DNA of 41,446 nt from assembly GCA_964486045.1 (NCBI GenBank), contig CAZALK010000026.1:1-41446 (forward strand). The letters are read 5' to 3'. The notes under the pieces were generated by a model that saw only the letters and a program-made list of their open reading frames with translations, ran no database searches and had not been told where the DNA came from. The first letter of the stretch is position 1. Every line of letters starts with the position of its first letter. Below are positions 7,489-11,608 of the stretch, piece by piece. The translations under genes were made by a program, and so were the position numbers. Source of the stretch: an uncultured archaeon. Its GTDB lineage: Archaea; Asgardarchaeota; Lokiarchaeia; Sigyniarchaeales; SOKP01.

Positions 7489-7598
7489 GCGGCTATAGTG
7501 TAGCCCGGTCCTTAAGTATCAAAATTCTGTCTACTTAGCCGAAAGCATTCGGGACTGTCACTCCTGCGACGCGGGTTCAAATCCCGCTAGCCGCGCCA
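7489..7598 (+). tRNA. tRNA-Asp(GTC) with a 32-nt non-canonical D-loop intron (7512-7543, position 20b/21) and encoded CCA
   Basis: Acceptor stem GCGGCTA/TAGCCGC; anticodon loop CT-GTC-AC; T-loop GGTTCAAATCC; BHB with helix CGGT/GCCG, bulges CCT and AAA, inner helix TAAGTA/TACTTA. Confidence 0.93.
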
Positions 7599-7614
7599 TT
7601 TTAAATAATAGCTT

Positions 7615-8136
7615 CTAGATCTCCAGATTCCATTTTTGAATTACATCTGGTTCTTCTCGTGGCCAATCATTTAAGTCATAAAATAAATCCAAATAGTTAC
7701 TTTTCTTATTAGCAATATGAAATTTTTGGTTTTTATAAAAATCTTCAAATAAGTGTTTTCTATAAGTTTTAAGTAGTAATACTCTACAACCACTACTTGA
7801 TCTTATGTCAAAAGATAATTTTTTAGCTAGTGAGATCATCAAACTTCCATAACCCTTACGTTGATATGCCATTTGAACTCCTAATTGTCCCATTAATTCT
7901 GCAGACCAACTTCTCTCTTCGCCTTTTAATGAACAATACAGTTTAGAATTACTTAAAGTAAAAAATCCAACCAAATTGTTTTGTTGGAATAAAAGGTAAG
8001 ACATTGAATTCCCAAATTCCACATCTTCATACATTTTGGAATGGAAATATTCATTAATCTGGTCATCTCCGCAGTCAAATTCTAATCCCGGTAATACGTT
8101 GGTAACTTTTTTTAGTGTAAACTCACTTGAAATCAT
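7615..8136 (-). CDS. GNAT acetyltransferase, AtaT/TacT toxin-like subtype
   Basis: N-terminal FDCGDDQINEYF; acetyl-CoA motif LMGQLGVQMAYQRKGYG; GCRVLLL...FY...F. Confidence 0.75.
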   Translation of the reverse strand: MISSEFTLKKVTNVLPGLEFDCGDDQINEYFHSKMYEDVEFGNSMSYLLFQQNNLVGFFTLSNSKLYCSLKGEERSWSAELMGQLGVQMAYQRKGYGSLMISLAKKLSFDIRSSSGCRVLLLKTYRKHLFEDFYKNQKFHIANKKSNYLDLFYDLNDWPREEPDVIQKWNLEI

Positions 8137-8750
8137 TTTTGTAACTTTTCAATTACGCGTTTTAGATATTTTTTTGATACTTTGAAATCCTCATCAAATT
8201 TTGAGGATTTAACAAATCCCACCCCATCATTAGTAAGTTCTACTTGTGAAACCGCTTTAGGAAATTTTCCTTTTATTGTAGATTCTTCTGAAACTAAAGA
8301 ATATTTGGAAAATTCAGGATATTTCCTATATATATCACCTAGTAGCTTTCCTATACTTGATTTTGCATATTTTATTTTCCACTTAGTAATCTCTGAAATC
8401 ATCCTTGGATCTTCTTTTTTAATAAATGCTAATGCCTTTTCTTTTTCATTTTTTGATAAACCATACAAAATTTCTTGACCAGATTCTTTGAAATCAATAG
8501 ATTTTTGATGAAATAGGTCATTCACTCTCACAGCTAATAATGTACTATAAGGTCCGAAGTGGTAGGGAAAAAACTCAGCAATGTTATCTAAATGGTAAAA
8601 GAAATTCCGCCAAATTAAAAAAAATTCTTTAACTAACCTTGTTCTCCCCTTAATTGGTTTAAAATTATCTAACGCAAATAAGATCATTAACCATTTATCA
8701 ATGAACTCTCTTTGATCCTCATTCATTTCTTTTTTTGCCGTCAAATTCAT
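8133..8750 (-). CDS. Panacea/SocA (DUF4065)-like winged-helix protein, putative antitoxin
   Basis: IKGRTRLVKEFFLI...FFPYHFGPYS...LLGDIYRKYPEF pattern; ATGA overlap with the GNAT gene. Confidence 0.65.
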   Translation of the reverse strand: MNLTAKKEMNEDQREFIDKWLMILFALDNFKPIKGRTRLVKEFFLIWRNFFYHLDNIAEFFPYHFGPYSTLLAVRVNDLFHQKSIDFKESGQEILYGLSKNEKEKALAFIKKEDPRMISEITKWKIKYAKSSIGKLLGDIYRKYPEFSKYSLVSEESTIKGKFPKAVSQVELTNDGVGFVKSSKFDEDFKVSKKYLKRVIEKLQK

Positions 8751-8753
8751 TTT

Positions 8754-9953
8754 TCACACCATATTTGGAAATCTTTCTTGAATACTACTTAAATTATCTT
8801 GAATAAATCTTTTTTGATTAAAATATATTTGTACTTCATCATTATCAATAGAATTCCTTATATTAACAAATTCTCTATTAGCATTAAAAGAATTATGGAC
8901 TTCCAGGATTCCTCTTCCATAGGAAGCCGTTAATTGACGAACTAATTCATTAATATTTCTTGCATTTCTGCAAGCTGGACAATTGCAAAATAAATTTACC
9001 CCAAAATTATTTCGTATATCACTTGTATTTATAAACCCTAAATATGAACTTTCAAAAATATTTTTATTTTTTATGATTGGGGGAATTATCGGTTGCTGAG
9101 TTTGAGTAGAAGGAATAGATATTCCTACAGGGGTAGGCATTAGACCTCTTGATGCTAAAGAGCTCTGTTGTCTAGCCATAAAAAATGCCCCATATTTATA
9201 CGCTTTTCTTTTAATTATAGTATCAATACCGTAGAGAGTATCTAAGTGTGATTCTGAGATTCCAAACCATGATTTTTTTACATCGCATAAGTGGATCCAA
9301 ATATCACTTTCATTATCATTAATAACTTCTACTAAACTATCTAAATATTTTCTTCCAGAACCTGTCATTCTGAATCCTATTGCATCTATATTTCTTGATA
9401 ATAGCCAATTTACTTTTTGTAATAATATTCTCTTTCCTTGATTTAAAGATAATACAGGCATAAGATTTACGAATCTTCCCGTCTCATAATGATCAATAAC
9501 ATGCTTTATAGCATCGTCTAAATAATTAATCCATGCTTGACTAAAAGATCTTAAAGTTGGATCTGGAATAGTAACTATATCAGAGCAATTCGCTTCTATT
9601 TGTGCATTGATTAGAAATCTTAGAGCATCTTGGCTGATAATTTTTTGATTTATACGAAATTGGATTACAGTTGGGATATTTCTCCTTGATTTACCTTTTA
9701 TACTATTTATTAACGCATTTAAAGCATTATTATCAAATCGAGTATTCTGATCTATTTTTAGATCGGAAACAATTTCATGAATTCCAATATTTTGATTAAT
9801 TGCAGATCTTAACACACCTTCTCCTTTTCTAAGATAACTTCTTTCAGTGTGATTTAAACCCATTCTGGGTGTTTCAATGATACTACCATTTATATTTAAT
9901 TCACCCATTCGCGCTCCACGATCAGTGTGTTCTATAGTAAAATCAAAAGATAT
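8754..9953 (-). CDS. Degenerate tRNA-guanine transglycosylase (TGT)-fold protein; probable ATA start at 9953
   Basis: N-terminus FTIEHTDRGARMGELNINGSIIETP; SDIVTIPD; IWIHL; GIDTI; Zn site CNCPAC...HN; lacks DSGG. Confidence 0.7.
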   Translation of the reverse strand: MSFDFTIEHTDRGARMGELNINGSIIETPRMGLNHTERSYLRKGEGVLRSAINQNIGIHEIVSDLKIDQNTRFDNNALNALINSIKGKSRRNIPTVIQFRINQKIISQDALRFLINAQIEANCSDIVTIPDPTLRSFSQAWINYLDDAIKHVIDHYETGRFVNLMPVLSLNQGKRILLQKVNWLLSRNIDAIGFRMTGSGRKYLDSLVEVINDNESDIWIHLCDVKKSWFGISESHLDTLYGIDTIIKRKAYKYGAFFMARQQSSLASRGLMPTPVGISIPSTQTQQPIIPPIIKNKNIFESSYLGFINTSDIRNNFGVNLFCNCPACRNARNINELVRQLTASYGRGILEVHNSFNANREFVNIRNSIDNDEVQIYFNQKRFIQDNLSSIQERFPNMV

Positions 9954-10202
9954 TTAATTTCACCCAAAAATCTGAATTTTTCTAATTCTAATAATATACA
10001 TTGATGTTATTAAATATTAACCTGTTTATATAGGTCTTATATCAAATCAATTTTTAATTTATAAACAAAAAAATTTTTTATAAAAATTTAAGGATATTTA
10101 AAATACACAATACAACTCTATAATAAAAACCGAATTATTACTACTGGGTTTCACTTGGAAAATAGAAAATCTTTCCAACGTTTTCAGATATTTTAATGTT
10201 AG

Positions 10203-10273
10203 GAATTTTTGGATTTTCTATTTATTTATTTCGGGATTCATTTACTAAAAAAATAAAAAAATTAAGTTAAAAT
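10203..10273. repeat. Left arm of ~70-bp imperfect inverted repeat
   Basis: Reverse complement matches 11346-11415 (core TAGTAAATGAATCCCGAAATAAATA). Confidence 0.85.
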
Positions 10274-10822: not shown

Positions 10823-11303
10823 ATGGTAGACGAAGCATTATTAAAAGAAATAAAAGCTGCTCAAGACGCAGGGGCATCTAGTGCATCTGTTGACACTATG
10901 ATGAAATCTTTTGAATTTATCAAGCAAATCTCCACCGAGAATGAGGACTTGAAGGAGGAGCTCGAAGATATGCAAATAACCATCCAGATGGTAATCACGG
11001 ACGCAGATAAGAAATTCTGGCTCTCAGTAAACGAAGGTAAATTAGATTTTGGTGATGGAGATGTAGAAAATCCTTCATTCACGATGTCTTCTACGCTGGA
11101 AGTGGGAGCTGGAATACTTATGGGTGAGGTAGACGCTACTTCCGCATATATGGCTGGCGACATTACAGTTGAAGGCAATCTCCAAGACGCAATGGCCTTT
11201 CAGGAAGCTTAGATAAGTCAAAAATTTTTGTGGTCTCCACACTAAGCCTGAAATCATAGAACTGGCCTTGGAAGCGTACGAAGACCTTGTCGAAGATCTT
11301 TAA
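10823..11303 (+). CDS. SCP2 sterol/lipid-binding domain protein; join(10823..11206,11253..11303), 144 aa if spliced, 129 aa unspliced
   Basis: SAYMAGDITVEGNL SCP2 motif; frame resumes after the 46-nt insert as IIELALEAYEDLVEDL-stop; T-run terminator follows. Confidence 0.85.
11207..11252 (+). other. Candidate BHB/BHL-type mRNA intron (46 nt) containing an in-frame TAG
   Basis: Central helix CAGG(11201-04)/CCTG(11247-50); bulge AAG; inner helix CTTAG/CTAAG; 3' AAA; cutting after nt 2 of each triplet restores the frame. Confidence 0.8.
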
Positions 11304-11335: not shown

Positions 11336-11371
11336 TCTTTTTTTTATTTTAACTTAATTTTTTATTTTTTT
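11336..11371 (+). terminator. Archaeal poly-T terminator after SCP2 exon 2
   Basis: Several long T runs 35-70 nt after TAA 11303. Confidence 0.5.
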
Positions 11372-11415
11372 AGTAAATGAATCCCGAAATAAATATATAG
11401 AAAATTTAGAAATTC
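11346..11415. repeat. Right arm of ~70-bp imperfect inverted repeat
   Basis: Inverted copy of 10203-10273. Confidence 0.85.
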
Positions 11416-11473
11416 GTAAGTTCAGAGCCATTCAAGATTTAAATATGCGATTTACCTTTACTTAATTAAAAGC

Positions 11474-11608
11474 ATGCAAGAATTCAAGGTAAACGATTAT
11501 ATCACATTGAGACTCGAAGGGAAGAATACGGTTATTTATGTTGCGGGAGAGAAGTTTCGGCAATGTAAGTATTTACTAATAAACATACTGGTCGATACTG
11601 GTCGATGA
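11474..11608 (+). pseudogene. 44-aa remnant resembling the N-terminal leader domain of Lokiarchaeal LRR proteins
   Basis: MQEFKVNDYITLRLEGKNTVIYVAGEKFRQCKYLLINI; ends at tandem 10-bp duplication ATACTGGTCG x2 (11585-11604). Confidence 0.6.

Follow-up and report, generated by a model that had tools for sequence, protein, structure and literature searches.

A candidate three-part Panacea-type toxin-antitoxin cassette with a putatively non-catalytic TGT-fold protein in Asgard archaea

VcaA, a DUF4065/Panacea protein, and VcaT, a clade C GNAT, form a validated toxin-antitoxin (TA) system that acetylates Gly-tRNA (PMC9177977). In multidomain PanA proteins, appended modules neutralise the toxin, and the Panacea domain itself has been proposed to sense unknown cues (PMC10440598). 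The cassette described here, which is apparently a three-part variant of such Panacea-type systems undescribed in the literature searched, lies in a contig of an uncultured Lokiarchaeial archaeon (CAZALK010000026.1, positions 1 to 41,446; this whole stretch of 41,446 nt is called the window). It encodes a TGT-fold protein that appears to have lost both catalytic aspartates (pseudo-TGT), a winged-helix (WH) antitoxin candidate and a GNAT toxin candidate. With a probability of about 0.5, it is a mobile three-component TA module in which the tail of the WH protein would neutralise the GNAT and the pseudo-TGT would control the WH core. No report of a core made of pseudo-TGT and Panacea was found, most subscription journals lying outside the coverage of the search. 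The features are as follows, with L005 and L057 denoting two other copies of the cassette:

8754..9953, minus strand: pseudo-TGT gene; the protein has 399 aa when translated from ATA and 384 aa when translated from the ATG at 9908
9960..9965, minus strand: putative ribosome-binding motif GGGTGA, 5' of the ATA start, the same in L005 and L057
8133..8750, minus strand: Panacea/SocA/DarG-C-like WH antitoxin candidate, 205 aa
8136..8285, minus strand: C-terminal tail of the WH protein, ~50 aa, candidate GNAT-neutralising module (DDGxGF ... EIxL and a helix)
7615..8136, minus strand: AtaT/TacT/KacT-type GNAT toxin candidate, 173 aa
7489..7598, plus strand: tRNA-Asp(GTC) with a D-loop intron, a host gene outside the cassette and its insertion site, present in cassette-free congeners
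7605..10151, no strand: inserted segment, approximate extent, 92-93% identical in DNA to the L005 and L057 copies

Gene layout and the WH-GNAT pair

On the minus strand the order is pseudo-TGT (9953-8754), WH (8750-8133) and GNAT (8136-7615), with a gap of 3 nt between the first two genes and an ATGA overlap between the last two. The GNAT stop codon stands 16 nt from the CCA of the tRNA, which is on the plus strand and convergent with the operon. These coordinates agree with the tight operon noted in a first-pass annotation that was made from the letters of the sequence. The three genes are found in this order again, at 88%, ~60% and ~30% identity, in Loki- and Heimdallarchaeia, and among 21 distinct tail-bearing WH proteins pseudo-TGT was found upstream in 18/18 and GNAT downstream in 17/17 cases where the contig reaches. 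Ratios of dN/dS were 0.11-0.27 across all three genes, which points to purifying selection on each of them. Because of this conservation elsewhere and these ratios, the cassette is not a chance arrangement.

The pseudo-TGT gene has no ATG at 9953, where an ATA stands behind the GGGTGA motif; both are retained in L005 and L057, and the copy L003 has an ATG at the same position. Since Arg15 of the N-terminal extension is kept in 30/32 sequences (the extension also holds a conserved first strand), 9953 was preferred over the ATG at 9908, and translation most likely starts at the ATA.

When a profile built from 16 orthologues of the GNAT was searched against the PDB, the top 15 sequences, among which KacT was named, had E values from 3e-19 to 3e-12, and other GNATs were no better than 7e-5. 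As far as their entry names and PDB codes show, all 15 are TA-toxin GNATs. The motif FDCGD, the acetyl-CoA-binding QxxGxG (Q92/G95/G97) and Tyr134 are intact, with Tyr in 13/16 and Phe in 3/16 orthologues at residue 134. Judged by sequence, the GNAT is closer to the tRNA-acetylating TA GNATs of the AtaT/TacT/KacT type than to other GNATs, as had been proposed from the sequence at first sight. The toxins of AtaRT, TacAT and KacAT are its closest solved relatives (E 3e-19) and share FDCG, QxxGxG and the Tyr with it. However, the cassette antitoxin, unlike theirs, is not a ribbon-helix-helix (RHH)/DUF1778 protein, and of its tail no more than the final 18 residues resemble a strand-helix neutralising segment.

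The WH protein matched the PDC-M19A model of PADLOC (E 4e-11), and 7/10 of its relatives matched the DarG model. Its best fold match in both structure searches was the DarG C-terminal domain, whose structure was determined together with the toxin (7YK3; Z 9.3, root-mean-square deviation (rmsd) 4.4, 145 aligned). A Heimdallarchaeum relative, 35% identical, carries the UniRef name SocA-like Panacea, and PF13274 occurs in ~20% of the members of its Atlas neighbours. At the Pfam cut-off, PF13274 (SocA_Panacea) gave no match for the WH protein, with 1/10 relatives at E 0.034, and the protein of the window had no Pfam match at all. The WH protein is therefore best described as a candidate Panacea-type antitoxin outside strict Pfam membership, and the Panacea-like call of the first-pass annotation stands on the DarG-type matches, the UniRef name and the fold.

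As in VcaA-VcaT and PanA-PanT, a Panacea-type antitoxin candidate is encoded directly upstream of an AtaT-like GNAT and partners are swapped, and as in PanA (ZBD, PAD1, Phd-C) neutralising modules appear to be appended to a Panacea-like core. The cassette differs from these systems in its obligate third gene, pseudo-TGT, and in its archaeal host, and from PanA in a WH protein that falls below the SocA_Panacea cut-off and has GPY where Panacea has GPV (motif FPYHFGPYS, with FPYxxGPYS conserved). Unlike DarTG, it has no macrodomain, NADAR domain or ADP-ribosyltransferase.

Residues ~156-190 of the WH protein have a low predicted local distance difference test score (pLDDT), with a short helix after them; the tail was found in GNAT-type loci only. 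It gave no match to DUF1778, the neighbour of the GNAT being a winged-helix protein and not an RHH protein. Against the stand-alone partner genes of GNATs elsewhere in Asgard archaea there was a weak profile match of 18 columns (probability 15%, score 19.5; best of 200 column shuffles 10.8), of a kind that any amphipathic helix might give. Those AtaT-like GNATs occur in ~29 other Asgard genomes (L174-L198), many of them directly behind unnamed genes of 46-150 aa, which carry an E-x-x-L-T/S-x-x-E-A motif, have no Pfam match and are candidate minimal GNAT antitoxins. A WH homologue of ~320 aa (L131-L143) is present in 29/31 genomes of the Heimdallarchaeum family, where it is apparently conserved and not mobile.

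The TGT-fold protein

Pseudo-TGT consists of a TIM barrel and a Zn subdomain and has no PUA domain. Its AlphaFold2 (AF2) model, built from 40 homologues (pLDDT 87.9), matched ArcTGT 1IQ8 with Z 23.9 (rmsd 4.1, 309 aligned) in the VIA structure comparison, followed by bacterial TGT (23.8), QTRT2 (22.1), Cap10 (15.1) and DpdA (14.8). The structures behind Z 22-24 were 1IQ8, 3UNT and 6FV5, unrelated barrels reached Z 13 or less, and Foldseek gave E 6e-12. By its modelled fold, the protein belongs to the TGT superfamily. The Pfam TGT family was matched below the cut-off only, in the Zn region, and hhalign to an ArcTGT-type profile gave 96.7%; the nearest Atlas clusters are without names and ~90% archaeal.

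In the profile alignment, GIDTII of pseudo-TGT lies over GCDLMD of ArcTGT, with Ile247 on the nucleophile Asp. No Asp occurs at columns 246-248 (the nucleophile, at the end of strand beta8) in any of the 40 and 32 family rows (0/40 and 0/32). The residue there is S/T/A/I/C/N, with Ser commonest (22/40) and Ile in the subclade of the window. Likewise, no family row has an Asp at columns 95-101, where the acid/base Asp of DSG(G) in strand beta3 would be expected, the beta3 register being read from the AF2 model and not from a residue-level superposition. On this alignment, both catalytic Asp are lost across the family, and pseudo-TGT is presumably inactive in base exchange. The first-pass annotation had described a non-catalytic TGT fold, in which the TGT N-terminus and the Zn site are kept, DSGG is absent and GIDTII replaces GxDxFD, and this description is borne out by fold, profile alignment and column counts. 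Without the nucleophile Asp and DSG, the protein does not align as an intact ArcTGT or DpdA. The reported SDIxxxD motif is present, but its spacer has four residues (SDIVTIPD), not three.

The Zn ligands C323/C325/C328/H353 (CxCxxC...H) are kept in 37-40 of the 40 family rows, and E60, Q118, D131, H221, H236 and D244 in ~90% or more of the 40 members at ~20% identity. D131, the end of the SDI motif, occupies the position of the guanine-reading Asp of TGT. Since the Zn ligands and these six polar residues are near-invariant, a pocket is under selection, though TGT chemistry should not be possible. The same six residues, together with the frequent Ser at the nucleophile position, would also suit a remodelled but active enzyme, whose new chemistry would act on a base, a nucleotide or a protein, or a main effector, with the WH protein and the variable gene as regulators or back-up toxins. 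Pseudo-TGT stands without WH in Bathyarchaeia, as that explanation would allow, and Cap10 is a precedent for TGT folds repurposed in defence. However, the nucleophile position varies, unlike a catalytic residue, and the neighbourhoods read carry no annotated precursor genes of the QueC/QueD/QueE type, so an enzymatic role is a serious but unlikely alternative to a controlling protein without base-exchange activity.

Pseudo-TGT shares the TIM barrel, the CxCxxC..H Zn subdomain and the N-terminal R..TP signature with ArcTGT (TgtA), bacterial TGT, QTRT2 and DpdA; unlike ArcTGT, bacterial TGT and DpdA, it has no DSG(G), nucleophile Asp or PUA domain and is sporadic and mobile. QTRT2 is also non-catalytic but, unlike pseudo-TGT, is the partner of an active TGT. 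With 399 aa only, no PUA domains and no housekeeping conservation (its gene is carried by 8/400 Asgard genomes and 1/53 congeners, many being incomplete metagenome-assembled genomes), the protein does not qualify as an ArcTGT. Replacement of the housekeeping ArcTGT/ArcS by pseudo-TGT was ruled out, as the host genome encodes separate ArcTGT and ArcS-like genes. Cap10 of type IV CBASS keeps D73/S74/D122 and the catalytic D248 and depends on the QueC-like Cap9 and a CD-NTase (bioRxiv 10.1101/2025.04.06.647259; PDB 9NTN). As there, a TGT fold would have been recruited into a defence operon (Cap10 as its protein-binding part), but pseudo-TGT is without the catalytic Asp and the cassette has neither Cap9 nor a CD-NTase.

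GNAT and TGT also co-occur within the BREX-like operons of BRC systems, which are proposed to modify DNA (PMC12839542), and the cassette could by analogy be a DpdA-like or BRC-type module marking self DNA. This is very improbable, given the absent catalytic Asp, the Z of 14.8 to DpdA vs ~24 to tRNA TGTs and a GNAT that appears to be of the tRNA-toxin type. Marker genes of type IV CBASS, Dpd and BRC (CD-NTase with Cap9, DpdB/C, HerA with PglZ and BrxC) were all absent from the cassette operon, and PADLOC gave no match on the pseudo-TGT family except one chance-level HerA. A second TGT-family gene, DSGG-bearing and of 441 aa, was seen at L039:7883-9208 (G135) beside HerA/NurA-like and ATPase genes; that locus is probably DNA-acting (DpdA-like) and unrelated to the cassette.

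Constant core, exchangeable effector and mobility

Outside the GNAT clade, pseudo-TGT and WH are kept and the third gene varies across archaea, encoding a two-helix membrane (2-TM) protein, a DUF4258-like protein, a DUF3368 PIN protein, a ParE toxin or a Zn-ribbon protein. The 2-TM effectors were present in 9/32 paired loci, in Thor-, Hodarchaeota, Methanomassiliicoccales and other hosts. The appendage of the WH protein changes with the effector: an N-terminal Zn ribbon goes with the DUF4258-like protein, UPF0175 with DUF3368 PIN, a tail of another kind with ParE, the GNAT tail with GNAT and none with 2-TM. From the pseudo-TGT side, WH was adjacent in 13/16 evaluable loci, the exceptions being one pseudogene (a broken copy) and two Bathyarchaeia-clade loci. 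The constant partner of pseudo-TGT is the antitoxin, not the GNAT. Gene context shows a core of pseudo-TGT and WH, and a toxin that is swapped together with its neutralising appendage. The trees of the two core proteins were congruent, with r 0.91 between distance matrices (the WH tree being a quick version with long branches for L127, L099 and L093), which speaks for co-inheritance only, not for contact.

An ordinary PanA-GNAT pair of the VcaAT kind, with the pseudo-TGT gene as a passenger or accessory not touching the pair, would agree with the fact that Panacea-GNAT functions as a two-gene TA (PMC9177977), with third genes being confined to small subsets of PanAT loci and judged not general (Kurata et al., PMC8832971), and with the weak prediction for the pseudo-TGT/WH complex given below. 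Nevertheless, pseudo-TGT is present in 18/18 evaluable GNAT-type loci in translationally tight arrangement, it persists across five or more effector types and across altered gene orders, and it is co-inherited with WH. A mere passenger is accordingly a clearly unlikely explanation.

The first-pass annotation had further proposed a tRNA-centred TA or defence module, in which a non-catalytic TGT fold acts as sensor or tRNA adaptor. In such a model, the dead TGT would bind tRNA for delivery to the GNAT or sense tRNA damage. The TA-type triad and the mobile, defence-island context were recovered, as was the synteny sought elsewhere. Its tRNA-centred part was weakened, because the core also occurs with membrane, RNase-like and ParE effectors, which need no tRNA adaptor. 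In its favour, the fold is nearest to tRNA-binding TGTs including the non-catalytic QTRT2, pseudo-TGT of the window is basic (isoelectric point (pI) 9.1), and both the GNAT and a number of the alternative effectors target translation or RNA. On the other hand, the 2-TM loci share the same core, there is no PUA domain, the family ranges in pI from 5.6 to 9.7, and the tRNA next to the cassette is merely where it inserted. GNATs of the AtaT type work without an adaptor. Delivery or sensing of tRNA by pseudo-TGT is hence considered improbable.

The cassette is, by sequence comparison, evidently a sporadic mobile insertion. It was absent at the tRNA-Arg/SCP2/tRNA-Asp block of 10 congeners, 9 of which have the second SCP2 gene within 0.15-0.8 kb. 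The L005 copy matches 7619-10013 at 92% identity, at another site with no adjoining tRNA, and the L057 copy matches 8159-10151 at the same site as in the window. The L003 copy adjoins a tRNA-Arg, and the L001 copy, without a tRNA, lies in an AbiTii/HNH/methylase island. Because other copies have a different tRNA or none and congeners lack the cassette, tRNA-Asp is an insertion site only, and it was rejected as a functional partner. Neighbours of family loci include AbiTii, HNH, methylases, integrases, insertion sequence elements, MazEF and HEPN. No integrase or recombinase was found in the cassette, the 3' end of the tRNA was not repeated in the genome as an att direct repeat, and composition did not mark the insert (GC 0.29-0.30 vs 0.31). 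No relatives were found in phage or plasmid collections or among viral structures, and the only viral-contig WH match was without a pseudo-TGT gene. A TM-type cassette (L035:7941-10286, G324) adjoins a co-oriented gene run resembling an integrated virus or element.

The tRNA at 7489-7598 was called Asp(GTC) by ARAGORN only after removal of its D-loop intron of 32-35 nt. This intron is non-canonical, and ARAGORN missed or miscalled the gene that holds it; no other Asp(GTC) arm with this pattern occurs in the genome. On the other side of the insert, a 73-nt inverted repeat (10199-10271 and 11347-11419) lies either side of the second SCP2 gene. The orientation of this gene is the same in L159, L160, L166 and L167 and inverted in L161-L164, L168 and L057, and in L166 it is flanked by a similar repeat; because both orientations occur among congeners and the repeat is present in the window and L166, the comparison suggests that the gene lies in an invertible segment. 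An insertion of ~46 nt with short inverted ends (11205-11250), single-copy in the genome, truncates the SCP2 gene to 133 aa vs 148 aa in relatives, the missing C-terminus following in another frame. At 11464-11600 there is a short degenerate fragment like the N-terminus of a Lokiarchaeial leucine-rich-repeat (LRR) protein family, repeated elsewhere in the genome.

Proposed mechanism and its implications

By homology to AtaT/TacT, the GNAT would acetylate aminoacyl-tRNA and block translation. The WH protein would act as antitoxin, its C-terminal tail binding and blocking the GNAT, as the co-occurrence of tail and GNAT and the precedent of PanA suggest. Pseudo-TGT, presumably unable to exchange bases, may bind the Panacea-like core, as weakly predicted, and would control it by stabilising the antitoxin or by relaying a cue that frees the toxin. 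The outcome would presumably be that a cell under stress or infection stops growing, or that the host becomes addicted to the element. In the complex prediction, pseudo-TGT and WH gave ipSAE 0.60, rated weak, vs 0.00 for the best of three controls; separate runs have at least 36% of contacts in common, and the partner pLDDT is at least 67. In calibration, 58/80 solved and 2/110 mismatched pairs reached the mark, but only 7/80 solved pairs, and both mismatches, did so with a score of 0.60 or under.

Several points weigh against this mechanism. A complex score of 0.60 lies in a range where, unless there is a good prior, predictions fail more often than they hold, and the profile of the WH tail was built from the GNAT-type loci themselves. 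These loci form essentially one clade, and the coupling of tail and GNAT is therefore a single event. The strictly kept E60, Q118, D131, H221 and H236 could mark a different catalytic site. WH homologues without a pseudo-TGT gene were found in 85/400 genomes and, conversely, a large Bathyarchaeia clade of the pseudo-TGT family (~95 clusters) is without WH or toxin, so pseudo-TGT can have a WH-independent role. Moreover, the mechanism is a proposal from sequence, gene context and models. The Bathyarchaeia clade is possibly a domesticated form of the family; at L041:6599-8110 and L199:3097-4610 the gene has a 106-aa Cys-rich partner, the two being fixed in the chromosome between prefoldin and SMC/Scp genes.

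Pseudo-TGT might be a pattern receptor: its purine pocket, still present, would recognise a ligand linked to viruses (7-deazaguanine-modified DNA or base, or else tRNA in cleaved or hypomodified form), and whichever toxin is attached would be released via the Panacea-like core. We regard this as an unlikely reading; if it were true, the cassette would be an antiviral system of archaea not described so far, and an upstream cue for Panacea antitoxins would have been identified for the first time.

For the three-component TA module, the role of Panacea where another module neutralises the toxin was left open by Ernits et al. (PMC10440598), and pseudo-TGT is a concrete candidate partner for it. 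It would also be the second case after Cap10 of a TGT fold in conflict systems, here apparently without catalytic residues. The three-gene system is testable, the GNAT having a standard read-out by liquid chromatography-mass spectrometry (LC-MS), and the cassette points to tRNA-acetylating toxins in Asgard archaea.

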